Source: Hydrolagus colliei (taxonomy: Eukaryota). Taken from it: 64,000 nt of DNA. Below are positions 16,501 to 64,000 of the stretch, one piece after another. A program made the position numbers and the translations under genes. Each line of letters starts with the position of its first letter. Within the stretch, counting starts at the first letter, position 1. The stretch lies in NCBI GenBank assembly GCA_035084275.1, contig CM068756.1, forward strand, positions 4,340,001-4,404,000, in the 5' to 3' direction. Under the pieces are notes generated by a model that saw only the letters and a list, made by a program, of their open reading frames with translations, was not told the origin of the DNA and made no database searches.

Positions 16501-17494
16501 TGCTGGGATGACCACAATGCCACCTGTGTAGAAAAGTATCATTCATTTCATTTCCCATCAATGTTATTTGGGGGCTTTGAGACGTTTATTTTTATGCGAA
16601 AAGGTGCTGTATAATTGCAGCTTATGCAGCTTGAATTGTTTCTGAACTGTAAGGTGCCCCTGATTTGAAAGTGCTACCATACTATTGTGTTTCCAAATAT
16701 ACACTGAGCAATATTAGAAAAAGTTGGAGTCAGTGACTGTGGTCTATGGTTCAAGAGCTGCTCTTTAATGTATGCGCTGTGGTGTGGTGAAGTGTGGTGC
16801 TGGACTACTTGTGTTGAAACGTATCATTTTTACTTTGAATTCTCTTGTCGCAACTCACTGCTGCTGTCTCGAATTCCCACGGTACAATCTCCTGAGGACA
16901 ACCCAATAATCACACGTTAGAAATCCGCTGCTCTCTCCATGCCTCACCAATCAAATAATCTATAACTTGTTGCTGCTTAATAGCCCTTAACAAGTCTTTA
17001 ATGAGCCGAGCAGTCTGTTTCTCCAAATGCTAGCGAGAAGAATGGCGAGTTTCTCAAACAAGCTTTTAACAAGTTGGATATGCAGATTAAAAAGATGCTT
17101 TGAGTTGCCGGGGGGAAGAACCAGTTGGAATGATGCAGAGTCTGAAAAGGTTGTCCTGAAAACAGATGATTTTCTGAAGACGGTGAAAAGTTTGGAAAGA
17201 TCTTCATGTGGGGATGTGATGAAAGGTTGTGAAGCTCGAGCCTGAAAGGATTGTCCTTGGGGATTTAAACTGATAAGGAATAGTTTGTGTCAGAAAAAAG
17301 TAATTCAGAGTAATTGCTGGACTACAGCATAGGGAAATTGGAACATCTTAAGAGGTGCATCATTACAGTAGATGACTTTCCTTCTTGAATGCGGAACAAG
17401 AAGAATCACACATCTGGAATTAAGGAACAAAAAAAATGCAATTCTCAGTGGAAAGGGATTTCCCCTTCCTTGTTTCTATAACCAGCTCCCCTTA
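13544..17494. repeat. Direct tandem duplication, ~1.97-kb unit (13544-15520, 15521-17494), ~99% identical
   Basis: Identical ORF-track entries offset by 1974 nt; about 20 substitutions and a 3-bp indel by eye. Confidence 0.95.
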
Positions 17495-41758: not shown

Positions 41759-42560
41759 ATGATGGAGAACCAAAGCCTGGTGGATGCCAATGCATCTGCC
41801 TGGGGTGTGGAGAGATCTGTGCAAGAGGCGGCGGCGGTGGCTGCCACCATCAAAACGTGTCTCATTGTAGCGCTGGGCGGTTTGATCATCCTGGGCAACA
41901 CTGCGGTCATCATGGTCATCTCCTCCTCGGTGTCTGGATGGTCCAAAAACAGCCGCTACGTCCTGATCTCCCTGACCGGCGCCGACGCCGCCTTGGCTCT
42001 GATAGTCATCCCCCTGAACCTGTATGGGAGCCGGGTCCCTGAGCTCAGACGTCAGTTGGACCCTCCCTTCTGTCACCTGGCTGTCTTCCTCAACTCCAGC
42101 GTCCTCACCTCCTCCATCTACTCCCTAGCCACCATCAGCATCGAGCGCTACATCGCCGTCTTCTACCCTCTCAGGTACGCCTTCCTGATGACCAGTGTCA
42201 GGATCAAAGCCCTCATCGCCCTGGCTTGGCTGATGCCGCCCGTCCTCATGCTGCCCATCTCGGTGCCCGGGGGGGTGGTCCAAGTCTACTTCTCCGGATC
42301 GTCCTTGATCTGCAACTTGGATTTTTCCAGCAACCTGCCTTACTCCGTGACTCTGACCACCTTGGTCTTCTTCCCCTGCTCCCTCATCATGACCTTCGCC
42401 AACTTCCGCCTCTGGTTCGCAGCCAGGAGTCACCTCAACCGGTTCAAACCCTCCAAAGTGGGCAGGCGAAGGCACGATTCGGCCTCCAGGATTCTGGTGC
42501 CTGTGGTTATGGTCTATTACACCTGCTGGACCCCCTGTGTCTGCAACATCCTCTACCAGG
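41759..42560 (+). CDS. Orphan class A (rhodopsin-like) GPCR, GPR21/GPR52-like, coding exon 1 (TM1-TM6)
   Basis: ORF MMENQSL... with N-glycosylation sequons (NQS, NAS), TM1 GN, TM2 SLTGAD, TM3 C...ERY, TM4 W, TM5 FFP and TM6 CWTP. Phase-1 donor CAGG|GTGAGT at 42560/42561. Confidence 0.93.
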
Positions 42561-42759
42561 GTGAGTATCTGTCCTTCGGGTGAGATGTTAAACTGAGGTC
42601 CTCTTGGCAGGTTTGGGTGGAATGTTAAGGACCCATCGCTTGGCACTGTTTGAAAAGGAGAGTTTCTTTTTCTCTCACTCTCGCTCTCTGTATCCTAGCT
42701 AATAATCAACCCCCACCCACCCAAATAAAATTGGTTACTCGCTCCAAGGGTGTGAAAAT

Positions 42760-43065
42760 TACATTTGTATAGCGTCTGTCCCATCAGGAGGCTGGACAGA
42801 TACTGCTTCAGACCCGAGCTGTGGACGGGGGTGGAGGGGGTGGGTGGTGGGGGGGGTGAGTTGTTGTCGATGGGTCCATCGAAGAGGAGAGTCTTGAGGC
42901 GAGACTTGAAGGAGGCCAGGGATTATACAAATGTAATTTTGTTGTTTGTGCACAAGCTGTACACACCCTACTCAATTCACTTTTAATTTTAAGCGGTAAC
43001 TGTCCAGCGCCTTGGGACATCCTTCTGACATGAAAGGCGCTATACAAATGTAATGATGTTGTTGT
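42760..43065. mobile_element. Short L2 3'-end fragments in both orientations in the GPCR intron
   Basis: Minus-strand L2 tail at ~42760-42920 and a plus-strand stem-loop/TTG tail at ~43000-43065. Confidence 0.65.
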
Positions 43066-43264
43066 TTACAGTACATTGTGTTAAGTGTTTGTGACGTCTA
43101 GAAGATGTGAAAAGCGCTATATCAAATGCAAGGATTATCGTTATTATTAAAACGTTGCACTTTGTTCTGTTGAAATTGCTTGTTTTTAAACGAGTATAAA
43201 AATGACACAATTCATCACATTTTCCACTTCGAGGCCCTCCTAACCAAATGTGTTTCAATTTTAG

Positions 43265-43593
43265 CTCTAACGCAACAGAGGGTGTCGGAATGGTTAGAGT
43301 TTGTTGCCCTGTGGTTACCCTGCGGAAATGGCTTTCTCAACTGTATTGTATACTTCTGGATGAACAAGAGCTTCAGAAAAAAGTTTCAGAAAATGATGAA
43401 CAAACTTGTGGGATACCAGTGTTTCGCGGCCCAAGAGAACACTATTGCCAAATTTCCCAATCGAAGCTCGTTCAAGGTTTGGGATCGCCCCATCGAAGTG
43501 AGATTTTGCAGCATCTCGTCCATTTGTAACTTGGTGCCCTCTATGAGTGATGAGAGAATACATTGTGAAAAATTCAGACCTGTACATCTGTGA
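43265..43593 (+). CDS. Orphan class A GPCR, coding exon 2 (ECL3, TM7, helix 8, C-tail)
   Basis: Acceptor TTTTAG|CT at 43264/43265 joins exon 1 in frame: ALTQQRVSEWLEFVALWLPCGNGFLNCIVYFWMNKSFRKKF...PVHL*. Spliced CDS is 1131 nt = 376 aa. Confidence 0.92.
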
Positions 43594-46419
43594 CATATCT
43601 GGGTGGTGGTTAAGGCTTGTGGCTGCAAATAGCAAAACTGCACAGGGGAGCTGTTTTATTCTGGCAAGAAGTTCTAACCAGGGCGGGCTGTGGCTTTCAG
43701 ATTTATGGATTTCAGTAAATATAACGAGAACCAACTCAATATATTCCAATTTATTTCCTCTATCTTCCAGTTTAAATTTGAGCTTACCTCTAAGGCAATT
43801 CACGTGGTGTCACGATAACATAATTAAATATAATTATCTTAATTGTTTGTTAATTTGGAATCTCAAAAGCACGTCATTGAATAAATTTGTAGTTCCATAG
43901 TGTATTTCTTTGTGTATTTAAAATGAGAAGTAAAGTAGTTGAAAGGATTTCCTTTTTTTGTAGACTTTGTTTTGAGGTTTCCTGTTACTTCAATGGGGTA
44001 ATTGTATTTGTAAAGAGATTAGTTGCTGGGCATTCACTTACTCCTATTGATCACTGCTCAAAGTAGCTTTAGAAAGGCCCTTTTCATCTAAGAAAGGTAA
44101 TAGAATCAGGGTGATTGGTTAGACCGCCATTGCCAGTTAGATCTAAACTGAGCCTGAAGTGCTTGAGCAATTTCAGCACGATTTAATTGAAACGTAGATC
44201 TGCTTCTGATTACTAGTCAATTACCCAAGGATACTTTTGATTCCATAGATTGGTTGTGAAGCCCATTGAATAGAAGTCTACTTATCCTAAACCATTTTAA
44301 AAAGAATAATTAATGTTTTAAAAGAATTATTTTTTAAAAAAAGTATTATGTAATCGCTTTGGAAAATTTATGCTAACTTGAAGTGAAGGCCTCCCTTTTT
44401 CTTAAAAACAACAAAAGTGGGAATTCAAATATGCTTCACGACTAACGTTGTCAGCAGAAATAAGAGGCTTCTACTCTCGGGTACTGGTTCATTTCGGAAT
44501 AAACTTACAGCTGCTGAATTGATTTGAACAAGATTCTCTTGTCCTGGGCCTTTCTCTAGGCCTTTTATTAAGTACAGTGTGCTGAAAAACTGGTCTTTGT
44601 AACCATATTAAGTAGGACTATCTTGGCCTGACCAAAATAAGCCAATGTTAAATTGTGTAAAAAAGGATGGTGCGAAGCCTCGGTATGTGTAATTTAGTTG
44701 CGACTAATTCCTGTTCTTTAGACTAACTGTTGAGTTCTAGGGATGAAGTATTTTGAAAGAAAAAGCCCTTCAGTTCTGCTGGTAATGTTATCTTTTAATC
44801 TTTTTTTCTTCTGGGAAGGAGGTGATGCACTTTAAAACACCACAATATTGTACACTTTTGTTACTTGTATTGTGCCATATTGTATATTTTATATTATGTT
44901 TATAAGGTAATCTTAGGATTTCGAAGTAAGTTTAATGGGAAATTGTTAATTTTTGGGGGACTTGGATGTTCAGAACATTTCCTAGTTTGTGCTACTAAAG
45001 CTGGATGATTGCAATATCAGAAAATAAAGCTATGATGCCTCAAGTGAATCTTTTGTCATTTCTGGAAAAACGCTGTTAACACTTTTTAGCACAAATTATG
45101 AATTTTCTAACTTTCATACAAGGCAAAATACTGTTTTAAAAAAAAACAGAAGCACTAACTTGGTGGGACTCCTTCTCACTTTAATTTAAACCTGCTGCTT
45201 ATAAATATTTAGAACTACTTCAATGTTTTAGGATAAGTGAGAAAGACATCGCTCCATACAATTTTCGGTAACCACTATGTACTCACTTCCTACACAGACT
45301 TTTATTCAATTTACAGCTAAAAGTTCTACAAATTCAATTCTTAGGTTCATTCAATTTCGCAGATTCAATCAGCCTTAATATACAAGTTTGCTTTAAATCC
45401 AAAGTGATTCTGAAAGAAAAAGACAAGTCACAAATATGATTCAAACCACAGCATCTTTTATTAATGAGAGTGTTTGTAGAAAATATTGTAACTTTTCAAT
45501 TCGACTTCCAGGTCAATTCAGGAACTACGACGCACCCCAAGCAGTTGTTTTCAAACACTTCTGAAACATTTCTGCAATGGTTATCCATGATGCCCTTCAT
45601 TTAATATTGTATTAATTTATAAACAGCTGTTCTGTAGCAACCAACTGTTAAGACCATAGGTAACACTCCATAAACTGATGTGGATTGAAAGATAGTCTAG
45701 TTTATAATTAAATACAAATCTATGTTAGCTCTTCCTCTCCCCCACCCTCCCTCCACCGATTATGAATGTGTGTCCTCTTGTTAAAGATGAACATAGAATG
45801 AAGTTAAGTGTGTTGTTGTATTGAGGCTCTCTGATGGCACATCGAAAGTAAAGTACGACTAAGCCATTCAAAGCAGACAAGCCCCTCTAAAACAATGAGA
45901 TGAAAAATTCACTAAAATAATGAAGAGTTGGAGAAGCCAATGGCTGGGTGGTCTTGTGATTTTTTTCATACAAATCATTTATTGTTTGTGATTGATTGGG
46001 AGAAAAAACGAAATTTCCTTCCTTTCTCAGACATTTGAGGATTTGTTGAATATTTTTTAAATGTACATAAAAAATGTACTTTTACTAAAAATATATACAT
46101 TTTTGCCTTGTTGCAGTTTGCTCTTGAATTACATTGTTTCCTAATCCTTGGATTTAGTTATCCTTTATTTGATGTACATTAGGCTAAATATAATGAAACC
46201 AGATTTCTATTCGCAGTATTGAGTTAAAGTGCAGAAGTCAGTAGATTGGGTTAATTTTTTAAAGAAACAAAATCACTTGCCATTTATATATTGAGAAAAT
46301 AAATCAAGTGTAAATGCCGGCAAAATCCTATCAAAACTCGAAAGTTGCTTTGTGTAACTTTGGTTTTGAAATTATTGTATCGCATTCTAAATGTTCTCTG
46401 TGATTTTGTTTTCCAAATA

Positions 46420-46812
46420 CAGTAAAAGCTTGGTTATCCGGCACCCAGCCAACTGGAACGATCAACCAACCGGTATCTCCCAATACAATTCACCATTCCA
46501 GCAACCGAATCTCATACCGTAGCCATCCAGGACACTCACTTTGTGCATGTGTGCGCATGCGCACTTATTAAAAGTACCAAATGCTGCAATGCTTTTTTTA
46601 CCGATCATTTTACAGAGTGTGCTGGAATGCTTTATTGGTAAATATCCATACAATATTCTGTTATTATTTAGTCTATTATTAATATGGTATGTTTTAAAAT
46701 AAGTAAATTTTTTGTGTAGGATTTCCGGCAACTTGCTGTTCGAATATCCAACATATTTAATTAACCAGCATCGGTCAGGTCCCGAGGGTGCCGGATAACG
46801 AAGCTTTTACTG
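46420..46812. mobile_element. pogo/Tigger-like MITE in the SULT 3' region
   Basis: TA|CAGTAAAAGCTTGGTTATCCGGCACCC ... GGGTGCCGGATAACGAAGCTTTTACTG|TA. Confidence 0.88.
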
Positions 46813-46868
46813 TAGTTGGGTTTTCCTGAGCAGGGCCTTTAGAACTGCACAAGATTAGGGAATTGGGC

Positions 46869-46981
46869 TCATAAATTCCAGATAAACCGAATGTCAGAAT
46901 TGCTTAGTTTCTCCTGGCAAATCTTCTGAAAAAACTGGATCTGTTCCTCTGTGAAATGTTCTTTCCAGTCTCCAACTATGC
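46869..46981 (-). CDS. SULT5A1: SULT5A1-like coding exon 6 (last)
   Basis: GIVGDWKEHFTEEQ...FIWNL* completes the RKGxxGDWK motif. Total CDS is 864 nt = 287 aa. Confidence 0.9.
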
Positions 46982-47063
46982 CTGCACAAGAGTGAGAAAA
47001 TCAATCATAATGAGATCGAACTTACAGCAAAGATCTGAGATCTGATCTGTGACTTTCACTGAC

Positions 47064-47244
47064 CTTTTCTCATGAATTTGCCGATCCTGTGATCCATAAT
47101 TTCATTGGGAACCAGTGTGTAGTTCGCCATCTGGTTGTCCTTCATGGTGGTGAAAGTGCAACAGGGAACGATTGCATCAATTTGTTCCGGTGAAAGTGGG
47201 TGGCCTAGGAAATTGCACGTCTTTTCAACACATTGTCTGAGATT
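47064..47244 (-). CDS. SULT5A1: SULT5A1-like coding exon 5
   Basis: NLRQCVEKTCNFLG...MKDNQMANY...FMRKG; 181 nt. Confidence 0.9.
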
Positions 47245-48137
47245 CTGTAAAGATAACGGGTGTAATTTTGACAGGCCCTCATGAAATTCTCTTGCACTCT
47301 TAAACAAAAACAGAAGTTGCTGGGAAAACTCAGCAGGTCAGGCAGCATCCATGGAGAAAGGAAAGTGAGTCAACTCCCTACTGTCTGCTAAGCTTGTGTT
47401 TCTACCCCTGCCCCTGACTCGGTCCCGGGATCCGCTATTGTGAAGCGCTCTGAGATGCCGTCCGGCGTGGAGGGCGCTATATAAATCGAAGTTGTTGTTG
47501 TGTTAGGATTAAATTCGTTTCTGACTAGATTGGAGGAGCTTTGTTCAAATTTCCTGCCCAAATATCTAAAATAACTTGCCTCTGTTGAGAGTTTAGTATT
47601 TCCTTATTCTTTGGCTGGACTCAGTGTTATTAGCAGTAAGCTCACAGTACATATTCTTCAAATGTTTCCCATGTTTCCCATTGCTGGAGTTTTTCCACAT
47701 GCAACATGTTCAATAGTTCCTCTTTCCTTATTCGTTTCCTGTATGTTTCTGAAGTGTTTCACAAAGTTGAGGCTTTGTCGCACAATATGGCAGTGTTCCA
47801 TTTATCGCATGCATTTATCATATAATTAGCCTTCACCAATTAGAGGACCAATTAGACATCATTATAAAAGGATCTGCCACTGGGTTATTTGAGGTTTCAT
47901 TTTGTTCTGTAATCTCCCATCAGCTCTGCTCTTTCAGCCACTGCTTCCTGAAACTCTGGAACACTCTTCCTCTATCCCCTCGCCCTGCCCCTTCTGTCCC
48001 CATCTTCAAGCCGTGCCTGAAGACTTTCCTCTTTGACTGTGCCTCAGTCCCTCCCACCAAGGCTCGGCATTGTGCATCGCCACTGTCAAATGTAATTAGT
48101 ATTATGATGAGACATAGCAATAAAACAAACTCTTTAC

Positions 48138-48232
48138 CTTCTTCATTTCTTCGTAGGTAATGAACAGGAAGTCGAATTCTTCTTTGTGCTCCAGCCATTC
48201 TTTTATATGGTCAAACCAAGACCCAAAGTGCA
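48138..48232 (-). CDS. SULT5A1: SULT5A1-like coding exon 4
   Basis: [32 protein letters not shown]; 95 nt; AG/GT boundaries. Confidence 0.9.
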
Positions 48233-49674
48233 CTGAAAAGCAAGATAAAAGAGTCACTTTGAATCTCACTGACCAGACTTATCAAACTATTTTCCCCACT
48301 GTCAAAATATAAATATAAAAAAATATAAATATTAAAAAAGATTGAGACATTAGTTAACTTTTCCCTAAATGGATTGTGGTCAACGGCACTGTTTTATTCA
48401 CAGTTTAGCGTTAATTTAATAATGATGTACTGATCGCTACATGGCCTGATATGTTTGAAATCACATGGATCTCAGGACTTAGGTTGACTTGAATTCCTCT
48501 TTCCCTCCCTCCACCCTACAAATATAAGGCAGTCCATGCCCATTAAATGTATTGCAATCTGCTGTGTAAATAATGTACAGTGCTCCATCTCAGAGACGAA
48601 AAGCTTTACATTTGGAAATGTCCTATTCATTCCATGCCTCTGAACTGTACCAAAATTTTCTTTCAAACTGTAGATTGCCTTTACATTTATGGCACTTTGT
48701 GAGTAATTTATTGAATACATTTAACCAATTTCTTAACCAATAATTATAATAATAATAATCCTTGCATTTGATATAGTGCTTATCTATGCCTTTTGGATTT
48801 CTAAAGGTTTGTGTCCATATTTGCCATTTTACCTATAAATAAAAGTAAAGGCAGTAATATCTCCAATCTTACAGTTGCTTTGGGAGAAAAAAAACTATTC
48901 TTTCTTCAGATCATAATAACGTCCTTCATATCAATGTCTTTGATCAATATAAAGGTTGCTTGTAAACCATTCACTTTCCTTTCAATTGCACTTATTCTTT
49001 ACAAATTCTGTGCTTGCATTTCAATAACATTGGCTACATTTTATCTAAAGCGTTTCCATTTTTTTTTAACTGGTTATAAATGACCAATTTCTCAATCGCT
49101 TGACAACTTGCAATGGCAACTGTGAGAAATGGATCGGATCTGCTGGAGTAAATGTAACAACAGGAATTACTTCAGAGAACAGGAAGAAACCAGCAGATGC
49201 ACCTAATACCACAAACAGTCCAGTTTGCGCATCACAATCCACATTTAAACTTAACTTCAAGATACTCATGTTCAAACCCACTGATTGTCTGCCACCTCCC
49301 TGCCTCTTTGACCTCCTCACTCCCCAATCCATCACCCGGCGCCTCCACTCAACTGGCCTCCTGCTCTCCCCTCATATCCTCCACCCCACCATTGGAGGTT
49401 GTGCTTTCAGCCTGATCCAATCTCTCCGCCTTGACCCCCCCTTCCACTTAGACCACATTTACGGCCACCTTTCTCCTCCTCCGACCCCACCCACCCCTCT
49501 ACCCCAGCTTGGGAGTCAGGCTCCAATGACTAGGCACTCTGAGACGCTACCCATTGTGCTTGAGTGTATTTCCACATTTAGTGTGGTACGGTGAGGCAAA
49601 GTGTCACCGTCGTATGTGGTTAGTTGCTTCAGCAATCGGCACAGAAACAAATGAAATAAATAAAAATTGCATAC

Positions 49675-49801
49675 CCTCTCCGAAAGCAAACTTCCTCACA
49701 AATTCTTCAAAGGTTCCTGGGTCTGGTAGGAATTGTGCCATTTTGTGAAAATAGTAAAATGATACAATTATATCCTTTGGGTTTCTCGCAAGGTAAATCA
49801 C
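49675..49801 (-). CDS. SULT5A1: SULT5A1-like coding exon 3
   Basis: VIYLARNPKDIIVSFYYF (3'-phosphate binding motif); 127 nt; AG/GT boundaries. Confidence 0.9.
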
Positions 49802-49869
49802 CTATGAAACACAATGGCAAAATGTACAACAGACTCTCACTACAATCCACTACAACAAGCTAAATACTG

Positions 49870-50179
49870 TAATAATAATCTCTGCATTTGATATAGCACT
49901 TTTCATGTCTTCTAGATGTCTCAAAGCGCTTCACAGAATATACTGTAAAGGGAATTGACTGTATATTTCTGGGCAAAACGTGGCAGCCAATTGCGCACAG
50001 GAAGATCCCACAAACAGTTGTGGATTGAAATGACCAATTTATTATTGTTGTTTTTTTTGAGGGGTTATTATTAGGCGTGTGGAGTAAGGAAACTTACCCA
50101 AGGTTTCACCCTGCCTGGACTTGGACCCAGATCTCTCACTTGTAAAGCAAGTGCTCTAACCACTGAGCTACAGGACTCC
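49870..50179 (-). mobile_element. tRNA-derived SINE in SULT intron 2
   Basis: Same family; full length. Confidence 0.88.
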
Positions 50180-50612
50180 AAATGAAACGTTCTGGTTCAA
50201 TAAGGTGCCTGGAGAAGAGCAATGGGAGCTGGCAGCCTGTATTCCTGTTCGCGCTCTCCATTGCTCTCACACTAACTGGGAATGGAGTGTAGACAGTACA
50301 TCATTGAGCTCCAGTGCATGAGTATTGAACTCAGCATCAGTTTAGATTGCAAATGCCAAATGGCCTGTTACGGTTGTCAACACCCCAAGCCACAAACGGC
50401 AGGAAAGAAACATCATGCTATTTTCTTGATGTTCACAAGAAAAACAGAATAACTACAGTAGCTGCTTCACCATAGCTACTGTGGTGCAGGGCTATATATC
50501 TAAAGGAAATGCTTAAAAAATGTACTTGTTTTTCTACATCTCGTTTCCTTTATAAAGCTGCAAAAAGGACTGACTATCAGAAGCGATTGCTTGGTGCTTA
50601 AAGTTCACGTAC

Positions 50613-50821
50613 CTTCGGTTTAGATTGTTTCAGAGATTTGGAAAGGATGTGATAGGGCAGATGTGATGTGATGATCCGATTGTCTGGTCTGTTCTGCAGA
50701 ATGTCCTCACAGTAGTATTGCTCAAGCCATGGGGCGCGCATCCAGTTTGGGAGGGTTTTCACAGCATCTTCGTTTCCAGCATTGTATATCAGTGTGAGAA
50801 TCTCCTGCATCCATGTTGTAC
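50613..50821 (-). CDS. SULT5A1: SULT5A1-like coding exon 2
   Basis: GTTWMQEIL...RAPWLE...IITSHLP (catalytic His)...KPK; AG/GT boundaries; 209 nt. Confidence 0.9.
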
Positions 50822-52762
50822 CTATTGGAATTAGACATCAAAACATTGAACACTGTATTAGAGCTAAGTAGATACTGTATATAGCTAAGTATCAGTGTCC
50901 ACGACGGTCGTGCGCAATTGGCTATTGCATTTCGTCTGCAAAATATACAGTCAAATTAACTTAGGAGTACTGTACTGTATATTCTGTGAAGCGCTTTGAG
51001 ATGTCTCAATGATGTGATAAGGCGCTATATCAAATGCAAGGATTATTATTATTGAGTTCGATGCAGTAATTTGTTCTGTCATTCATTTGGGGGGGAATAA
51101 ATAACAGGAAGTTCTTCTGTGCCTACAACATCTATTTGTTCCAAGTTAAAATCCCCTATTGGATGTTACACTTCATTTCAATTCCAATTGCCTATGACGT
51201 GTTATAAAGTTGTAAATATAAAGTGGATTTCCATGTTTCGTTCTCCTTCCCCTGCCCTCCTTTAAAGCAGCACGGTGTGTGTTTCGAATCACTCATTTAA
51301 ATGTCACTGAATACTTCACTGAATAGCATAAGGCAGCATTCTCCTGTGCATTTCCATTTCCCTTTTCTACTTCCATTACTAAGTAAAACAAAAGGCACTT
51401 CACATGTGAGAGCGCAAAAGAACAAGAAACAGCAGGAGACAAACTGTGGTTTCTATGTGCATCTCCGCTGAAGTTAAATTACCCACTTGAGAAGGTGCTG
51501 GCCCGGATTCTTGTGTAAAAAGAAGCATGTTTGAAAAATAAAGTATTCAAGCTGCATGAACAGAATTGCAGAACAGCGAGCCTTGAGGTTAGAGGAAGTG
51601 GGCGCCTAGACACCTCGACATCACCAATGTTGTGATATTGTTCTTTAAAATCAATCGACCACAATCTGTCGCCCTGATTCCCTGTTGAACACATCATTCT
51701 CTCAATACCACAGGACTGTACCCATTAGCTCTCACGTGACCTTATGTGGCTCTTATGTGGTGGCTTCATAGAACATCCTAATTGGGTCAACAGGTCCACA
51801 CCTACGTTATATAATGCCTCTCAAGCAGGGTAGAATGCCAGCGAGCTTGTCAGACCAGTAGAAACAATCTTCCACTTTGAAAGGGCTACGGGGGGAGTCA
51901 ATACAACCTGTCGCTATACAACCTGAACTCCAGTGTGAAACAGATTCCGTGCCGCTATCACCATACTGCTCCTGAGCAAAGGTTTATTTTATTCATATGG
52001 TACATCAATTCCTGAGGCACCTTCAAGTGAATGTCCTCGAAAACCTGCAGGTATTGTGCAAACTGATTTGACTTTGATGAACAAAATTGTTATGATAAAA
52101 TTCAGGTCAATATCGCAGAATGTTCTCTCTGTTCTAAGAGGTTCGATTGGCCTCCAGAGTTTTCTTTGGGTCTGAATGGGTAGTATTCCACAAATATACA
52201 GTCAATTCACTTTACAGTATATTCTGTGAAGCCCTTTGAGATGTCGATAAGATGTGAAAAGTGCTATATCAAAATGCAAGGATTATCAAAATGCAAGGAT
52301 TATTATAGTATAGGCGTTAACTAATTAAACTCCAGAAATGCCACAGCCACACTTCGGGGTCCCCAAGCCTTGGCTGTTGCCAGTATGCACCTACTAGAGT
52401 ACTTTGATAAGCAGGCTATTATAAGCAGGGTGCGTTGCTCGGGGGAAAGAGTCTGTACTCCCATTGCAGAGAACCCAAATTCCTACATATATTGAATTTA
52501 GTAGTTAGATTTGGAGCTTCTCAAGCACGGTGATGGGTTTGGACACAAATACAAATACCAAACAAGTGGTCGATTTATGAAATATCCCTTTCACTAATGC
52601 CTGAGCCAGATTGGCAGGTTGCCTGGATAAAATGTATAAAAGAATTAGAAATTTTGTCGCAAGTATTTATGGCGAACAATGAAAATGTCCGGTAAAGAAA
52701 ACAACTCTAACATGTAACAGCACAGTTAGTGACTTGAGCTGCAAAGCTCTGGTGCTCCTTAC

Positions 52763-52901
52763 CTGATTTGGGATATGTGACCAGGAGAGTATCGGTCTCG
52801 TGGAATTTAAAGTCCTTGGCATATTCCAGGGATTTCATTGTGTGCAAGTGCCCAGGAAAGTTGATGTTTGAGTAACGCAAAGTCACATCTAGGTCAGCCA
52901 T
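52763..52901 (-). CDS. SULT5A1: Cytosolic sulfotransferase (SULT5A1-like), coding exon 1
   Basis: MADLDVT...LLVTYPKSG (PAPS-binding 5'-PSB loop); donor G|GTAAG. The symbol rests on SULT motifs plus the head-to-head position next to DPEP1, as known for Sult5a1. Confidence 0.88.
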
Positions 52902-53042
52902 GGCTTGGAGAACTGCAGAGAGTAGTTGCTCGATAAAGAGGGTTTGCCTTTTATTCAAGCCCAAACAAACACGTCACATTTTGCTGCTTCCCTTTTTACA
53001 CATCACTGTATCAGTAAGGCATGGTAAAGCCCCCAACTAATT

Positions 53043-53710
53043 AATAATAATAATAATCCGTGCATTTTCATATAGCGCTTTTTCACGTCTTCTAGACATC
53101 TCAAAGCGCTTCATAGAATACACTGTAAAGTGAATTGACTGTATATTTGGGGGCGAAACGCAGCAGCCAATTGCGCACAGCAGCGTCCCACAAACAGTCA
53201 TGGATTGAAATGATCAATTTTATTATTGTGTTTTTTTGGAAGGATTATTATTAGACTTGTGGAGTAAGGAATCTTGCCCAAGGTTTCGCCTTGACCTGCC
53301 TGCATTCGAATGGTTGTCCTTTGCATGACTTCATCAGGCAGAAGGTTGGTTAAGCACTTTCTGGTGATTAGTCGGGCACAATTTTGAGTACAAATTCCTC
53401 CTTCCTTTGCGCACAAAAAACTCGATCGTTGCCCTTTACAATCGATATTACGCATGTTTCCTTACTCCCCACGCCTCTGTTTACCCAGTAAGTAGGAACC
53501 CAGTTCTAGGGTTAATAATCCCTCAAAAACAATAATAATTTTGTCACTCAATCCACAACTGTTTGTAGGACACTGCTGTGCGCAATTAGCTGCTGCGTTT
53601 TGCCACAAATATACAGTCAATTCATTTTACAAGATATCCTGTAAAGTCTTTTGAGACATCTAGAAGACATGAAAAGTGCTATATGAAATGAAAGGATTAT
53701 TATTGTTATT
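53043..53710. mobile_element. Inverted pair of SINEs (53043-53310 minus; ~53455-53710 plus)
   Basis: Two copies of the same family in opposite orientation, ~145 bp apart, just upstream of the SULT ATG. Confidence 0.82.
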
Positions 53711-55579
53711 AATCCTGTGAAGTGCGTTAAGATGCACTCCTGATTTGAAAGGCGTGATAGTGAATGCAACAATTGTTGTGTTGAATCAAATCTTGAGCAC
53801 TAGTCCGTCACTACAGCGCAGTAATGGAGAAACAACGGTTTGTCCTTCGTTTGGATGAGAAACTGAAGTGAGGTTCCATCTGCCTGATAGAGTGACTGAT
53901 AAATATCCCCCAAAAGTAATCAGAAAGAATAGGGACTTTCTCCTGGAATCCCAACTAACTAACAAACTCCCAGATAAATCTGTCATTCCGCGTGGAATAG
54001 GCTTCATTGAATGACTAATTATTTAAAAGCAGTCTTCTATTCCACCTGCTAAAAACTGCTCTCAGCTGTTTTCTGTCCGTTTGTTTTGAAGCAGATCAGA
54101 GTGAACAGATCCGACTTCCATAATGACATTAAAACAAATTACACTTGTATTAGTGCCTTTCACGTCGGGGGGAACGTCCCAATACTGCCACCGAGAGGCT
54201 GAAAGAGTACTTTATGTGGTTTGCAAAGTTTGATAAGAGTGAATTTCTATGAAAGCTCACAGCACGCTTTGATTAAAATCCCCATCTGCTGTTTCAAATC
54301 ACATGCGATATCTTCATTTCTGCTAAATTTCTGTTTAACAAAATTCCTGTCACTGAATATCTTGTTCACGGAAACCTGACAAAATTTCCAACTCAGCTCT
54401 GATTCCCATCAGTCGTTTGGTCTGTTTCATTTATGTCACAACTTTGCCATTGTAAATATACTGTGGAAAAAACAATGGAATCCTAACAAGTAAGGGCAAA
54501 TAAACATGTTGACTCCAAACTGTTACCCACAGAGCACATCTTTATATAATCTCTGGAAATGTTTAACCTTGTTTCATTATATTTTTGCTACAAAAGTATT
54601 ACCATAGGCCTCAACAGACAATACACTTGATTTTTTTTCAATCAGATCCCTCTTTCCTTGTTGAGAGTTTACGTTACTCCTAATTCTGATGGGAACGGGT
54701 TCAATAAACCAAATGGTTTTTCCTAATTATTCTAGTTTCTTTTGGTCCATGTCTGATAAGCGTAAGTAAAATTTGGGACTAGTTGGATAGCTCTATCAAA
54801 CAGCTGGCCCGGGCACGATGGACCGAATGGCCTCCTTTGGTGCTGTAAAATTCAATGATTCTTATGTCTCTGGAGCACTGAACATCCAAATTAATAACCT
54901 TTGTGACTGGTCATCGATTCCAGGTCAGCATGTTTACCAAAGTAAGAAAAAAGCATTTAAAATTGAGTTTCTAAAATCTGTTTTCATTTTAATGGGCACA
55001 TCCTTTCATTTTGCCCACAAATATACACTCAATTTAATTTACAGTGTATTCTGTGAACCGCCTTGAGACATCTAGAGGACCTGAAAGGCTCTATATCAAA
55101 TGCAAGGATTATTATTATTATTAGCTGGACAGTCAGGGTTTGCACCTGACCTGTGGGTTGGAATCAAGAGGGGTGGAGGGGCTAAGGGAGTGAGGTGAGA
55201 AGATGACTGAAGACATGGCCAAGGAGGAAGGTCTCAAGATGGGTGTTGAAGGAGGAAGCGAGGGGAAGGGATTCCGGGATGAGTTTTCAGGCGGGTGGAC
55301 TTTTGTTCAGGTCCCATTGCACTTAATTAAAATTTCCTCCGCAATCATTGTTTCCAGGAGTTGTTTAGAAAATGGTAACATTGACCATTTGTTGTTGTTG
55401 TTGTTGTTGTACGGACATTGTCTTACATATAGGAAACTGTTGCAAAGTTTATAGGAACAGTGTGGATTACTGCTCGAATAGGTAGATTTATAAAATGGGT
55501 TCAGAAGATAGGGAAGCATCACAAAAACACAAGATTGGTTTGGATGTGTGCTGGTATGTTTAACTTCATCCAACCAGAA

Positions 55580-55820
55580 TATAATAATAATAATCCTTGC
55601 ATTTTATATAGCGCTTTTCACATCTTGTCGAAGTCTCAAAGCGCTTCACAGAATTTACTGTAAAGTGAATTGACTGTATATTTGTGGGCGAAAAGTGGCA
55701 GCTAATTGCGCACAGTAGTGCCCCACAAACGGCTGTGGCTTCAAATGACCAATTTTACTTTTGTGGTTTTTTTTGGAGGGATTATTATTAGGCGTGTGGA
55801 GTAAGGAAACTTGCCCAAGG
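55580..55820 (-). mobile_element. tRNA-derived SINE, head truncated
   Basis: Same family. Confidence 0.82.
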
Positions 55821-55950
55821 AGCTCTAGCTTGTCTATTCGTCGCTTATAGATCATTCCTCTAAAAATGGCGCTGCCTCCAGGGTATGGGGGCCTGTTACG
55901 TCACACTGACTAGCTATGTGATGTCTGAAAATTCTGGTGCCATATGCGGT

Positions 55951-56533
55951 AATAATAATAATAAGAGGAATAATAAGAATAATAATCCTTGCATTTGGTA
56001 TAGCGCTTTTCATGTCTTCTAGATGTCTCAAGGTGCATCACAGAATATACTGTAACATGAATTGACTATATTTGTGGGTGAAATATGGCAGCCAATTGCG
56101 CACAGCAGTGTCCCACAAATAGTCAAGGATTGAAATGACCAATCTATTATTTTTCTTTCGAGGGATTATAACCTCTGTGACCCCCTACCAACCTTCCCCA
56201 CTCCCTCTGCTCAGCGGGCTCTAGCCTAACCCCCACCCTAACCTCTTTCAAGTCCCACCTCAAGACCCTCCTCTTCAATATCCCATCAGCCAATTCCTCT
56301 CCTTTCCCTCCACCCTCCCCAATCCCGATCCCAGCTTGGGTCTGAAACATTGACTGTCCAACATCTTGTGATGTCCTCCCAATGTGAAAGGTGCTATACA
56401 AATGTAATTTTGTTGTTGTTGTTATCAGGTATGTGGAGTAAGGAAACTTGACCAAAGTTTCTCCCTGCTTGGAATCAAACCCAGGTTTCTTGCTTGCGAG
56501 ACGAATGCTCTAACCACTGAGCTACAGGACTCC
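55951..56533 (-). mobile_element. SINE interrupted by a plus-strand L2 3' fragment (~56171-56421)
   Basis: The SINE stops at AGGGATTATA and resumes at TTATCAGGTATGTGGAGTAAGG after an L2 fragment ending in (TTG)n. Confidence 0.82.
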
Positions 56534-57739
56534 TGCGTGGTAGCTGTGTATGTGTCTTTAAACTCATACATATTTTGATCACTTTGTTTTAAGATGCATA
56601 CCTTTACTTGGAGCAGAGGTTGATGTGAATATACTTTTTAAAACACTGAACCCAGATAAAGCTAGTGACTAAGATCATTTTATGACAATATCCAGATACC
56701 ACTATAAGAATGATTAGGTTGGCAACCATTTGAGAATACATAATACTATAAATCTTTTAGGGGGAAATTGCAATCTCGTGCCATCTACTGATAGTATGTT
56801 TATATCCCCTTTACGTTGCACAACCTTCAGTTATCTGGTGTCGTTGAACATTCTCGTTTCACTTTTTTTTAATAGTTCAGAATAACAATAATGAAGTGCA
56901 CTTTAAACACATGACATACATAAAGTGTTCATCAGATTAGTTCAGTGGGTTTCAACACATTGTGAGCTTCTATCCCCATATCGGGATTTGAGCCGACAGT
57001 CCATATTGATCGGGGGAGCACGACATTGTCAAAAGAAACATTTTATGGATGAAACGTTAAATCTGATTCTCATCTGCCTTCCAGAGCAGTTAACGATCCC
57101 ATGTGTCTATTTGAAAAGAGAAGGGGAGTTTCTCTTGGTGTCTTAGCCAACAATGCTATTAATGATTGTTTGAAGAATCAGTGGCGTGAAAATTGGCTGC
57201 CCCATATTTGCCTACAAATAAACACCTGACAATAATTGAAGCGGTACGAGATGTTTCAATGTTGCAGTCACTGCATCAAATGGAAGGATTGTTATGGTTG
57301 GTATTAATGGGGAGTCCTGTAAAAGGGAAATGTTGTCAATGTGGCCGGTACACAGTAATACGAAGAATTAAATAGGATTTTTGGAAGAAATAACCAGATA
57401 CATTTCTGGGTATAAATAGATTCAAACGTTGTTGGTGGAATTTTTGTTTTGTTTCTGTCTAGAATAGGAATACCCAAGGTTAACACTTGGAGAGCTCAAG
57501 GAGGTTCTGATGAAGGATTAGACCCGAAAAACTAAACATTAAGATACCAATTAAACGTTAGCGCTTATTGAACCTAAAATAGCAACAACTTCAGTTATTG
57601 CAGTATTTTAAGGCACTATTTTCTTTGCACTTTATTTACAGATAGGAAAAGCGGTTTACAGGCTGTGTGGAACACAGTAGCAGTGGAAGGGTACAGGAGG
57701 TGATTTAAGATAGATTTATTTTGTAATTGAGATGGTCAA

Positions 57740-58000
57740 TAACAACAACAATGACAACATTGCATTTGCGTAGCACCATTCATGTTGGGAAGACATCCCA
57801 AGACACTGGACAGACAGTATTTCAGACCCAAGCTGCGAGTAGGGATTGGATAGGGTGAAGGGCAGGGGGGAAGGAGGTTGGTCAACAGAATGGTCGAAGA
57901 GGATGGCCTTAAGGTGGGTCTCGAAGGAGGCTAGGGATGGGGCGAGGTGGAGGGACTGTGAGATGGAGTTCCAGAGGGTGGGAGCAGAGTGGCTAAAGTT
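57740..58000 (-). mobile_element. L2 3' fragment
   Basis: AAC tail plus GGTCGAAGAGGATGGCCTTAAGG...GAGTTCCAGAGGGTGGG, homologous to the 29.6-kb L2. Confidence 0.7.
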
Positions 58001-59749
58001 CTGTCCACTGATTAAGGCTTCAGTAAACTAAAAAAAACAATAAAACAATTAACTTTGACCAGTTTGTGAGGTTCTCAGATGTGCACAGCTTCATTCAGCT
58101 AAATAGACGACAACAACAGTAGTAATGAGGTAAAGGTGACACATGTAGGACAAAGGAGGAAGGAAAATCAGAATCCACGTTACCCCTGTCTGCTCTCACA
58201 CGCTTCCCAAACCACAAAGGTCAGGCTGACGCAAATCCTACAAGGCAATTCCCTCCCAACTCTCCCAGGATGTGGAACGTTATGTGGCAAGAAGCCTCAT
58301 AAAATGCATGTGGGGAAATAAAACACAAATCTAAACAGCCACTGTGACCTTCTCCAATTTCAAGAACTGAAACAGAAAACTCACCATTTAATTAAAGAGA
58401 ACTAGCAAAGGGCATGTGTTTTGTATTAATAGAAATTGTAAGTTCCAAACTAAAGATTCTTCTCAGGTAAAAGGCCAAGTACGAGCAGGAGAATTAGCCA
58501 CAAACACAAATAGTGCCCTCAATGGAGAGGTTGGTGGTTTGGTTACAGTTCAAGATCTCTTACTCCACCCCCTTCATTCAGTGGAAGTAAAAAATCTTTC
58601 CTACTGTAAGCATACACATCAGACTTACAGTGTTTACATTGTTTAGAGGAATTACTTTCCTGATAAGAAACCCATTGGAATCAAGTCACATTTCTGTAGA
58701 AAATTGTCTATAAGAACACAGTATTGTACAGGACTGGAAAAGAGCATTATGGTTCATTTGGCCAGACCCAACGTAATATTTGTAACACATGCTCAGGCAC
58801 AGCGGTTGTATTTAGAAACGTCTCATTCCTCTTTCTCCCGCCCCCACCACGCCACCCACTCCATGACGCCACATGTCTGTACATCAACAGCATTTCGTGG
58901 CTAAACTGAAATACAATTGGAGCAAGTCTTGTCCTTGTGACTAGACTAAAGGTTTCCTCGTGTCTAGACTAAAGGAAGTCAAGAGAGACACATCAATTGT
59001 GGCCATTTCACAACTCAATGACTTCAGTTATATCTACTTTTTGGCAAAATTACAAAATACAAAAAAGCGCTCACTGATATGATACACTAGTCCAATCACT
59101 GAACCCAGACACTATCAAGTCAGATTCAGATATTGGTGGAGGTACTGAGGAGGGTGTTAATCAATCGGTGGAATTTTTCATAAAATGTTTCATTTTTCTG
59201 TGCCCAAATCTTTGTAGTCACAGTAAACATACTGTACTCGCAGTGTACCATGTGGTTTACTTACCTTGAGTCTTATTATCAGGCGAATGTTTCAGAATTC
59301 AGAATGTATTCAGAATTCTTCAAACCCACTTTCTAATGTGTATGAAAGGGACATACTGTACATGTAGAACTGCATTTGGTATGTAGGGCCTTTCACGTCG
59401 GGAGGATATCACCAAGCGTTTCAAATAGGATATATATTATATAATGTGTAATGATTGTGGATTTTTTTGAACAAAACTGGTTTCCTGTACTGTAATTGTT
59501 TCTCTCACTGGGAGCCTGTGAATAGATAGAAAGGTTTCAGTGTTGTTTGTTAATGGGGTGGGGGTGGGTGCTGCCTGAAAGAACAATAGGAAGACCACTG
59601 TCCCTCATCCCTATTCTGCTGCTGATTATTTAGTGTTTGTAATGATTATTTCCACACTTGGAAAATAGATGTCAGGTCACATTTAAGAAATTCAACTTTT
59701 CAAAATTCTCATCCATTTTGTGCCATTTCTCTTCAATTATAACCATCGT

Positions 59750-60046
59750 GGTATCCTGTAGCACTCGCCTCGCAGGAGAGAGACCTCGGTTAGTTTCCGG
59801 CAAGTAGAAATCATGGGCAAGATTCCTTACTCCCCATGCCTGATAATAATCCCTGAAGGGAAAAAAAATCAATCTTCACTTTAATGCGTTAGATAATGCA
59901 TTACATCTGGTCACTTCAATCCACGACTGTTTTGGGGACACTGTTGTATACTGATGTATTTCTTCCACAAATATACAGTAGATTTACTTTACATTATATT
60001 GTGTGAAGTGCCTTGAAACATCTCGAAGACGTGAAAAGTGCTATAT
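59750..60046 (+). mobile_element. tRNA-derived SINE split by a 1.77-kb insertion; tail resumes at 61821-61885
   Basis: Ends abruptly at AAAAGTGCTATAT; the missing CAAAxxCAAGG(ATT)n tail is found after 61859. Confidence 0.85.
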
Positions 60047-60761
60047 GTTGGCTGCTGCCAATGTTATTGTTCGGGAAAATAGCCGGTGGGAATGACCGAC
60101 CGCTGCCGAGAGGAGACAAGTCTGTTTAATTGTGAAGAAGCCGTTTAATTGCTTTCGGTGCAGTTGCGAGACGCTGCAGTCTGGCGGATTGAGAGGTCAC
60201 CGTGACTGTGTGCTAGTACTGGACATGATTTTCCAGGATGTTCTAGGAACTCCACGTACTTGGAAAAACTCAACTGGCTGACCGTGTACCCGTTGGAAAT
60301 GAATAACTCCATTCAACTAACTTGCTGTGATTGCAACTATTTGAACAAAAGCCACGTTTGTGTGATGTCAAACATTTACACGCGCACCTAAGGAGTGCAG
60401 GTCCAGACAAGCGTTTGGGAGATGTAGATATACAATGGTTATGGGAATGTCTGGTCTTTTAGCCCTTTAACATTCAACATCTATCCCTTTAACATTCAAC
60501 AGTAGAACCTTTTGCGACAGATCAGGTGCCAAGAGACACTAATGATATTTGCTTGCCATAGACCAATTGATTCTGATCAGATTCCTGAAATATGATCAGA
60601 TTTCCTGAAGGAAATTTGATTAGAATTACTGAACCGTAGCTTGGAAAATGTGAAGAATCTTTAGTTTTCTTATCCACTGTCCTAGAGCCGATTTGTAGGA
60701 CATCCAACAGCCCGATGAGAACTCCACCACCAGTGAATTCAAAACCTTTAATGAAATATTA

Positions 60762-61068
60762 ATAATAGTTCTTCCATTTGCTATAGCGCTTTCCATGTCT
60801 TCTAGATGTGTCAGAGCACTTCACAGAATATACTGTAAAGTGAATTGACTGTATATTTGTGGGTTAAACGTGGCAGCCAATGGCACACAGCAGTGTCCCA
60901 CAAACAATCGTGGATTGAGTGATCAAATTATTATTGTGTTTTTTTTCTTGAGAAATTATTATCAGGTGTACGGAGTAAGGAAACTTGCTCTAGGTTTCAC
61001 CCTGCTGGAAATGGAACCTAGGTCTCTTGCTTGCGAGCGCTGTAACCACTCACTGAGCTACAGGTTTC
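60762..61068 (-). mobile_element. tRNA-derived SINE carried inside the ZNF276-derived insert
   Basis: Same family on the reverse strand. Confidence 0.85.
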
Positions 61069-61473
61069 CACAGAAGAACTAAGGTCTAACACAAGATCTA
61101 ACTTCACAAGAATGCTTCCTAAATTGAGAATTTTGATGTCGACCCAATATCCAGTAACTCAATGTTGCAACTCATTGCTAATACACCAATGTGCTGCAGC
61201 ACCAAAATCCTTTTCGCATCTTAAATACTGTATGTAAGGGAAGAAATAATACATGCTCTATTTTGATTTGTAAAACTAGCTGGTTTTGCAAGCCTCAATA
61301 TTTTAGTGAGTGCCCCAGAAATACATTTCTTTTAAATTGCCTTTTCTAAATGTGTCGGTAATTTTAATACAGTATACATGATGAACTTCCTCAAATATTA
61401 GTTCTCAGCATAGTTTACACACAATAACAAATGGTAATCTTTTAAAGCAAAATTTCTCCCCCTTTTCTATCAG

Positions 61474-61792
61474 CTGCACCTACTGTTGTGACCACTAGCT
61501 ACTGCCGCCTCTGCCATGGCAAGTTTTCCTCCAGGAGTTTGCGGAATGTCTTTGCAAAGGTTCCTCTGATTGACGCAAATCCAGAGAGGCAACGAAGAGC
61601 ACAACAGATCTTCTGTGCCGATTTCCAGAGACTGGTTGGCATTGTGGTAAGGCAGGACCCCACCTTGCCCCAGTTTATCTGTAGGAACTGTCACACTCAG
61701 TTTTATAAATGCCGGAGTATCCTGCGAAACTTCATTCAACGAGTGAATTCTTCTCCCATGGCCCCCGTACAACGAGGACAAGAGGCGGGCAG
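61474..61792 (+). CDS. ZNF276: Isolated ZNF276-derived zf-AD (ZAD) exon; a duplicated gene fragment of unknown expression status
   Basis: Open frame YCRLCHGKFSSRSLR...DFQRLVGIVVRQDPTLPQFICRNCHTQFYKCRSILRNFIQRVN matches the ZNF276 N-terminal ZAD as recalled (CxxC...CxxC). Polypyrimidine+CAG acceptor at 61473; AG|GTAC donor at 61792. No other ZNF276 exons are recognisable in the window. Confidence 0.85.
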
Positions 61793-62140
61793 GTACCTAA
61801 AGACCAGATGATTAATGTGTGTGCCTTGAAACATCTCAAAGACGTGAAAAGTGCTATATCAAACACAAGGATTATTATTATGTATTATTATTGTTGTGAA
61901 TATTCAACGGTGCTCAAATGGTTAACAAACCGGCATTTGCAAACAGAGATGTACCTTTGGATGTTGCTCTCTGCACCTCTGCATATTATTAGCGACATAT
62001 TCTGTGATTCAGCCAAGAGATAATGCATTTCAATGTTCCGGTTTAGATCCAATTTGACTTTATCACAGGAAGAGATACAGAGCGAACACAAACAGAGAAA
62101 GTTTAAGGACTTGTATTTTTCCCATTCACAGACGGAGAAA

Positions 62141-62244
62141 ATGTGGATATCAGTCTTTCTTTTATGCCTTTTTACTCTCACTTCTGCAGATGAGTTCAAT
62201 ATGCGGGCAGAGAAACTGATGTCAACCAATCCTCTTATAGACGG
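62141..62244 (+). CDS. DPEP1: Dipeptidase 1 (membrane dipeptidase, M19), coding exon 1 with signal peptide
   Basis: MWISVFLLCLFTLTSA signal peptide, then ...PLIDG; acceptor 9 nt upstream of the ATG (exon starts 62132); donor GG|GTGAGT, phase 2. Confidence 0.92.
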
Positions 62245-62727
62245 GTGAGTGGAGATCATTTTAATAGATAAAAGTTACAAAAGTGACCAATTTCTAGATT
62301 TGCACTGTATCTGGATTTTAAGTGCAATAATAGATCAAGATAGTGGCTTTCTTTTAGCTATCAGTAATGTTTACAGAAATTGGCATCTCTGTGGTAATGT
62401 TTTTTCATATACACTTGTTTGCACGGAGCACTCAGTGTCATAAGAAAATACATCAAGCAATGTTAATGTTTCCTACAGTAACTGCAGTTATATATAAATA
62501 TATAATAATAATCCTTGCATTTGATATAGCGCTTTCCACATCTTATCAACGTTCCAAAGCGCTGCACAGAATATACTGTAAAGTGAATTGACTATATATT
62601 TGATAATACTTGCCTTTGATATATCGCCTCATCCCACTTCTTTTATGGGTGATTGACGTCTTTATATTAGAATTAATAGATAGCAAAATACCCCAATTTG
62701 TTTTGACATTTTAACCCTTCTTTTCAG

Positions 62728-62854
62728 ACACAATGATCTACCCTGGCAACTTCTAGTACGTTTCAACAATCAGCTGAACCAAGTGGATCTGAACACGTTC
62801 AATGGAACTCACACCAACATCCCCAAGCTGAAACGTGGCCTTGTTGGAGGACTG
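62728..62854 (+). CDS. DPEP1: DPEP1 coding exon 2
   Basis: (G)HNDLPWQL...[15 protein letters not shown] contains the Zn-binding H and D of the DGHNDLP motif; AG/GT boundaries. Confidence 0.93.
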
Positions 62855-63163
62855 GTATGATGTTTGTTTAGTCATAGATTGATTGAAGCATTTTACTAAC
62901 CAGTAGTAATGAATGAGAAAGGCCACCTGGCCCCTGAAGCCCACTGTATCCAATGGATCATTACCTAATTTAGCCCCAATTAGTTATATTCTAATATAAC
63001 CGGTTTAAGTTTATCTCGGGACATTCAGGAGCAAAACGTGGAGAACTTCCAGTAAAAAAAAGTTGCATTCCTCCTGAGCCAGTTGTTGCTTGTTTGATCT
63101 ACAATAACAAGACAAACTGAACTAATTGTCTGGATTGGACTCTTGTATGTCCCACTCTTCTAG

Positions 63164-63296
63164 TTTTGGGCAGCATACACACCTTGTGACACCCAGTACA
63201 AGGACGCTGTGAGACAGACCTTGGATCAGATTGATGTCATCCACAGAATGTGCAAGAAATACCCCGAGACATTCGCTTTTGCCGAAACGAGCGATG
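63164..63296 (+). CDS. DPEP1: DPEP1 coding exon 3
   Basis: [37 protein letters not shown]; 133 nt. Confidence 0.93.
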
Positions 63297-63660
63297 GTGA
63301 GTTAATAATAATCTTTGCATTTGATTTGGCCCCGATCACCTTGTCGAGACGTCTCAGATTATACTGGATAGTGAATTGACTGTATATTTTGTGGGCGAAA
63401 TGCGGCGGCCAATTGCGCACAGCAGTTGTGAATTGAATGGTCCATTCCCAACATTTCCCACCATTGTTTAAATCTTGAAAGGTTGGTCAACCAAACACTG
63501 CATCGACTGGGATCCAAATGTGAGAAATGTGAGAAAAAACAAAATGAAAGTTCGTCAGGAAGAAATCTCAAACTCTGTCAGGAAGAAACCAGTGTGATTT
63601 GTGACATCACTTTGAATTCAAGTGAAAAATCATTGACAACCTGAATCTCTTTCTGATTAG

Positions 63661-63811
63661 ATATAATGAAAGCTTTCAAAGCTAAAAAGGTGGCCAGTCT
63701 AATTGGTATTGAAGGCGGACACTCGATAGACAGCAGCATGGCTACACTACGGCTCTTCTATTCACTGGGAGTGCGTTACATGACCCTTACACACGGCTGC
63801 AACACACCTTG
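63661..63811 (+). CDS. DPEP1: DPEP1 coding exon 4 (gene continues beyond the window)
   Basis: [15 protein letters not shown]...[10 protein letters not shown] (catalytic Glu motif); donor TG|GTAAG. Confidence 0.93.
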
Positions 63812-64000
63812 GTAAGCAATAAATATTGCTGTTAAAAAGATGTTAATGTAAAATGTTAATCTTTTATACATATAACAGAATTTAAAGAGGATGCTCCAGT
63901 CTCTAGCCTGAGTGGATCTAATCTGCGGTATTTCTCAATGGGATTATTCAGGATCACAGTTAAAAATTCTTATCAACCCACAGGAACTCTATTTGTTTCA

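Follow-up and report, generated by a model that had tools for sequence, protein, structure and literature searches.

The window, which is the whole stretch of 64,000 bp that was analysed (C23:4340001-4404000; C23 is the contig that carries the window, native ZNF276 and DPEP1), contains a 1,780-bp piece of ZNF276 that ends 308 bp upstream of the first coding exon of DPEP1. This piece is probably a young passenger copy that arose by a template switch in DNA and yields no working ZAD-DPEP1 protein. On sequence comparison, the ZAD exon near DPEP1 is copied from the neighbouring gene ZNF276 and is not an innovation of DPEP1. The coordinates of the features are shown in Table 1.

Table 1. Features of the insertion and of the 5' part of DPEP1 (window positions unless marked C23)
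Feature	Position	Strand	Remarks
SINE-like repeat hosting the insertion, 5' part	59760..60046	+	Tail from 61860 to about 61890
Left copy of the 39-bp target duplication	60008..60046	.	Last 3 bp TAT (60044-60046) equal the start of the source block
ZNF276-derived block	60044..61823	+	1,780 bp; source C23:4420283-4422062, same orientation
ZNF276 exon 2 copy (ZAD)	61474..61792	+	319 bp, phase 1-2; Pfam PF07776; identical to native exon
17-codon uORF	61516..61569	+	Favourable Kozak context; not in the ZAD frame
Right copy of the 39-bp target duplication	61821..61859	.	First 3 bp GTG (61821-61823) equal the end of the source block
DPEP1 first coding exon	62132..62244	+	ATG 62141; encodes signal peptide, first helix and, from the first strand, L-I-D-G
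DPEP1 second coding exon	62728..62854	+	Starts within the Gly codon preceding H-N-D
DPEP1 third coding exon	63164..63296	+	Pfam PF01244; 95% to elephant shark DPEP1
DPEP1 fourth coding exon	63661..63811	+	Six further exons beyond the window

The block has the marks of a recent templated partial duplication, namely a near-identical source elsewhere in the genome, sharp boundaries at both ends, microhomology at the junctions and an interrupted target. It is 99.49% identical to its source, with 9 substitutions and 0 gaps over 1,780 bp, and comprises the last 1,430 bp of ZNF276 intron 1, exon 2 and the first 31 bp of intron 2. Only two matches to the ZAD exon are present in the genome, 20,239 bp apart, and two were likewise found for the left 657 bp of the block. 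ZNF276 exon 1, its ATG, the CpG-rich surroundings and the C2H2 finger exons are absent from the block and occur at the native locus only; with the start exon and finger exons missing, the block is a fragment, and it was rejected as a second ZNF276 gene copy. Native ZNF276 is complete. Its exon 1 begins MKRNKRGRF (ATG at C23:4419611; the source block begins 672 bp further downstream) and has a phase-1 donor that splices in frame to exon 2, the finger exons extend to about C23:4428596, and the gene matches shark proteins along their length. A nested arrangement, with DPEP1 inside a ZNF276 intron, was rejected, as native ZNF276 has its own exons 1 and 2 downstream. Compared with ZNF276/ZFP276 exon 2 (PF07776), the copy is identical to the native exon of this genome and 89% identical to that of shark ZNF276; it differs from the gene in having no exon 1, promoter region or C2H2 fingers.

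Reads assembled from individual animals bear on whether the duplication is real. The right junction of the copy, where the repeat tail comes after the end of the exon, stands in a 94-bp contig of run X2 (sample S1) at depth 38; S1 is possibly the source of the assembly, in which case X2 is not independent. Contigs of X1 (S1) and of X5 (S2, from another study) terminate exactly at 60044. In X5 the depth over the block is 80-83 against 34-38 in the flanks, or 2.2 times, and these are signs only, as the junction itself is not among the contigs. With the junction contig of the copy at full flank depth in S1 and the block at 2.2 times the flanks in S2, the insertion may be fixed or common, which either selection or drift could yield. 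An assembly artefact is extremely improbable as the origin of the duplicate: the 99.5% identity does resemble the level of nearby allelic differences (7 listed differences per about 1.2 kb in run X1), but the copy-specific right junction is present in X2, contigs from two samples and two studies stop at the left boundary, and a mis-join would not create a 39-bp target duplication in which one CpG has decayed.

The depths in S1 are additive, with 38 at the copy junction, 14.7 in a 3,158-bp contig through the native junction and 50, their sum, in the shared block. Contig depth is a weak measure that gives no copy number, and the following ratios are to be taken as hints. The native ZNF276 contig of S1 (C23:4422008 onward) has less than half the depth of DPEP1 (window 58500-64000), at 14.7 against 32-38, and in the related species B the ZNF276 stretch has a depth of 28-42 against 53-115 for DPEP1; the summed depths of S2 imply about equal values for the two genes. 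This would mean that some animals are hemizygous for ZNF276, or else that the DPEP1 block is amplified. GC bias was rejected as the cause of the half depth (38% versus 35-42%), as was a second DPEP1 copy, of which the assembly has none, only two distant paralogs. Sex linkage found no support: the one X fragment reported from holocephalans corresponds for the most part to human chromosome 1 (PMC12952989), and human DPEP1 lies at 16q24.3 (PMC11730190).

The insertion interrupts a SINE-like repeat, so labelled from its size and copy number. When the insert was removed in silico, other local copies of the repeat aligned across the junction, i.e. the repeat is continuous. The two 39-bp target copies differ by one G>A at a CpG, position 61838 in the right copy. 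Neither a poly(A) at the 3' end nor a TTTT/A site was found at the junctions of the block. A local DNA template switch would account for the TAT, the GTG and the 39-bp duplication together. A 3' end that had broken or stalled inside the repeat would have annealed via TAT to ZNF276 intron 1, 1.78 kb of ZNF276 would then have been copied by a template switch during repair or replication, and re-annealing via GTG 39 bp back in the repeat would have duplicated the target.

Among known systems, the block resembles the microhomology template-switch duplications of the FoSTeS/MMBIR type in its local source, in the 3-bp microhomology at both junctions, in the retained intron and in the small target duplication, which re-annealing behind the break explains. 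It differs in consisting of one clean insert, no other rearrangement having been observed, and the likeness is one of sequence alone. Like the templated sequence insertion polymorphisms (TSIP) described in PMC5110952, it is a piece templated from another locus at a new site, but its source is 20 kb away rather than distant. Its microhomology is as in class 2 and its target duplication as in class 1, so neither class fully fits (PMC5110952): class 1, the LINE-mediated retrocopy, was rejected as the poly(A) tail and TTTT/A site are missing, and class 2 was rejected as the 39-bp duplication accompanies the microhomology.

Insertion by way of RNA, in which a LINE enzyme acting in trans at a staggered nick would have copied unspliced ZNF276 pre-mRNA into DNA, is an unlikely alternative to the DNA template switch. 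The target duplication, which marks class 1 insertions (PMC5110952), is compatible with such a route, as are the ZNF276 sense orientation of the block and the reverse-transcriptase ORFs that are common nearby; the junctions, with microhomology at both ends and with the poly(A) and TTTT/A signals missing, argue against it, and so does a source just 20 kb distant. Reverse-transcriptase-like ORFs of LINE type were observed in the window at 30715-29594 (minus strand) and at C23:4417726-4419041, the latter between a CpG-rich region near C23:4417400 and ZNF276 exon 1.

The exon copy has an acceptor AG|CTG at 61473/61474 and a donor CAG|GTACCT at 61792/61793. It differs from native exon 2 at 0 of 319 positions, and 40 bp on the acceptor side and 6 bp on the donor side are also identical, the sole change near a splice site being at donor +7. 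On a simple consensus score the donor is weak, at 2.1 compared with 2.4-5.8 for five other local donors. The exon matches the Pfam zf-AD domain (PF07776) with 35.6 bits against a cut-off of 28 and contains both CxxC pairs, CRLC and CRNC, as expected of a ZAD; its best protein matches are to shark ZNF276 (84-89%). Much of what the sequence-only reading had described in this exon was borne out: AG and GT are present, the four Cys are kept, the frame is unbroken, and the donor is in phase with the acceptor of DPEP1 exon 2, so that 61792 to 62728 joins in frame with H-N-D retained. The same reading had correctly placed the splice from 61792 to 62132 outside the ZAD frame (stop after 29 codons) and the only ATG in the ZAD frame late in the exon, at 61758. 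Agreement in phase between two splice sites would be about a one-in-three event.

The intact state of the exon is probably explained by its age. In the related species B, one contig of depth 30 crosses the native right junction, reaching 216 bp to one side and 470 bp to the other, and the copy junction is not among the four records of that species, whose contigs show presence and not absence; of 12 runs, seven were compared, and X7, X8 and X12 were too shallow to count (depth 2-5). Relative to the reference, species B carries 9-12 substitutions per 480-690 bp (1.5-2.3%), which is 3-4 times the copy-native distance of 0.5%. Polarisation with 46 local repeat alignments placed changes on both copies (60781 in the copy, 60839 in the native sequence), with one CpG decayed each way. 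The insertion would postdate the split from the related species, and the exon would have had no time to decay.

None of the 9 changes of the block falls in the exon copy and all 9 fall in the flanking intron, a distribution in the direction expected under selection and not significant (chance P = 0.17-0.20 at 0.5% divergence). Only 6.6% of single-base changes in the exon copy would introduce a stop codon or alter a ligand Cys; an unbroken exon is therefore expected about 88% of the time. Purifying selection on the exon copy is therefore not detectable from these changes (0 of 9 in the exon, P = 0.17), and the exon likely looks intact because the copy is young. The ratio dN/dS relative to native ZNF276 is uninformative because copy and parent exon differ at 0 sites.

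The host gene DPEP1 is intact, with 10 coding exons, 408 aa and hydrophobic ends, and the whole model is 87% identical to elephant shark DPEP1. Together, the matches to shark ZNF276 and elephant shark DPEP1 point to a cartilaginous fish, probably a chimaera, as the bearer of this DNA. An AlphaFold model of the elephant shark protein, made with a 40-sequence alignment, has a pLDDT of 85 and a TM score of 0.89 against human renal dipeptidase (1ITQ). DPEP1 is the membrane dipeptidase of peptidase family M19 (PF01244). According to PMC11730190, DPEP1 folds as an (alpha/beta)8 barrel, its signal peptide has 16 residues, and the protein carries three disulfide sites, N-glycans and a GPI anchor. Translation here is predicted to begin still at the gene's own ATG and to give a secreted enzyme with a GPI anchor. 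Two more membrane-dipeptidase paralogs were observed at C23:5546440-5552156 and 10011639-10018160, with 49-67% identity to DPEP1, exon by exon.

That the ATG exon of DPEP1 has its own acceptor, as had been noted earlier, was confirmed (AG 9 nt upstream of ATG 62141); the acceptor at 62132 is in phase 0 relative to the ATG. An upstream DPEP1 exon is likely, because of this acceptor and because human DPEP1 has 11 exons according to PMC11730190 and 10 coding exons are present here. Nothing convincing as DPEP1 exon 1 was found in 44000-62131 by a donor scan, the CpG profile and similarity to an 8-residue extension seen in two sharks. An extension of 11 residues, in frame before the DPEP1 signal peptide, is common to two distant sharks (P0215, P0223) and corresponds to the 62132-62140 side. 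Several gene models start after it, and an upstream exon matching it was not found in 44000-62131.

Elsewhere in the window, positions 13544-17494 hold a tandem duplication of 1,977 bp with 98.9% identity, each unit of which contains the same open stretches of 84-100 codons, possibly an exon. Judged by motifs, the minus strand of 47059-52973 presumably carries exons of a cytosolic sulfotransferase-like gene, and two long ORFs on the plus strand of 41759-43590 are taken to resemble a two-exon class A GPCR.

A novel dipeptidase fused to the ZAD, one of the two outcomes that the sequence-only reading had proposed, is not supported, given that the copy has no ZNF276 exon 1 or ATG, that conserved fold elements are lost and that youth explains the intact exon. 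Such a functional fusion, with an upstream exon providing a phase-1 ATG and the signal-peptide exon skipped to give a dimerising, non-secreted dipeptidase, is highly improbable. Joining 61792 to 62728 preserves both the reading frame and H-N-D, and the ZAD is complete by Pfam, but the domain has no start, ZNF276 exon 1 lying outside the copy. No convincing phase-1 exon with a start was found upstream in a donor scan, in agreement with the earlier reading: of the 6 strong donors in 53100-61400, only 2 follow an ATG frame of phase 1, and both are chance-looking ORFs. A phase-0 upstream exon, as the DPEP1 acceptor implies, would stop 5 codons into the copy, and ATG 61758 lies behind the ZAD and would give a protein with no ZAD.

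The fusion must also skip the signal-peptide exon, which has a strong donor (5.7), and the skip deletes conserved core residues. The exon boundary falls within the Gly35 codon, midway along the first strand (32-37), and the product would be without residues 1-34, i.e. the signal peptide, the helix 18-29 and L32-I33-D34 of that strand, with Gly35 changed to Arg. Measured against family M19, the H and D of HND, which we take to be the zinc ligands, are retained (invariant in 40/40 aligned sequences), and the first strand L-I-D-G-H-N-D and the preceding helix are incomplete. The deleted columns are conserved in 38-39 of 40 aligned DPEP1 sequences. Among the matches listed, LIDG or LVDG precedes HNDLPW in 108 of the 111 homologs that have HNDLPW; the other three (P0225, P0235 and P0236) have no start Met and look like read-through of gene models. 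The first strand is probably one of the barrel strands, and its loss would break the enzyme. Disulfides and N-glycans do not form outside the secretory route. The three disulfide sites and the N-glycans of DPEP1 (PMC11730190) would therefore not form in a fusion that is not secreted.

Precedents for the parts of a fusion exist, in that the human ZFP276 ZAD can substitute for a dimerising ZAD of Drosophila (PMC12649048) and that animal proteins gain domains mainly through duplication followed by the joining of exons from neighbouring genes (PMC2926785). The present case is similar to the latter in that duplication has put an exon beside those of a neighbour with one side phase-compatible; it differs in that the exon copy is asymmetric (phase 1-2), has no start and gives no evidence of use. 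No fused protein is among the matches listed. A DPEP1 junction was found in 0 of the 131 ZAD matches listed (of 215 found) and a ZAD motif in 0 of the 120 DPEP1 matches listed (of 175 found), both of which are weak evidence, and a literature search on ZNF276 and DPEP1 gave no report of the locus among the titles and abstracts listed.

The passenger copy of ZNF276 may still be touched by splicing. Because its splice signals are identical to those of the native ZNF276 exon, inclusion of the copy in DPEP1 mRNA is quite possible. If spliced at all, it would be predicted to join the next acceptor, 62132, and to act as 5'UTR. Through this joint, ATG 61709 is in frame with DPEP1 and would place 31 extra residues before the signal peptide, and ATG 61758 would open an ORF that runs over the DPEP1 start in a different frame. 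A 5'UTR cassette exon with uORFs, the second outcome proposed by the sequence-only reading, is the plausible side effect of the insertion. It is rather unlikely that the insert falls within DPEP1 intron 1 and that a large share of the mRNAs carry it, between exon 1 and 62132, as a 5'UTR exon of 319 nt, with uORFs lowering translation and ATG 61709 extending the protein. Acceptor, donor and the 1.4 kb upstream intron all equal those of native exon 2, the next acceptor is 339 bp away, ATGs are present at 61516, 61546, 61709 and 61758, and an upstream DPEP1 exon is likely. DPEP1 exon 1 was, however, not located in 44000-62131, so transcription may begin downstream of the copy; the donor scores low relative to its neighbours, and nothing shows selection on the exon copy. 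A combined outcome, which would be exon shuffling at its very beginning and in which a species-specific copy of the vertebrate ZAD exon would already be spliced into DPEP1 transcripts and throttle them via uORFs, with a minor skip isoform making a ZAD-dipeptidase from an unrecognised upstream start, is very improbable on the sequence evidence.

A functional fusion, if true, would be the first ZAD on an enzyme among those found here, and the evidence is against it. Regular inclusion of the copy, if true, would offer a natural experiment on the tolerance of a 5'UTR for a new exon. The exon also cautions that an orphan exon may look intact because it is young and not because it functions. The block is a clean and datable example of a whole domain exon, with its splice signals, placed beside a neighbouring gene, probably by a local template switch, and as such it is raw material for domain gain.
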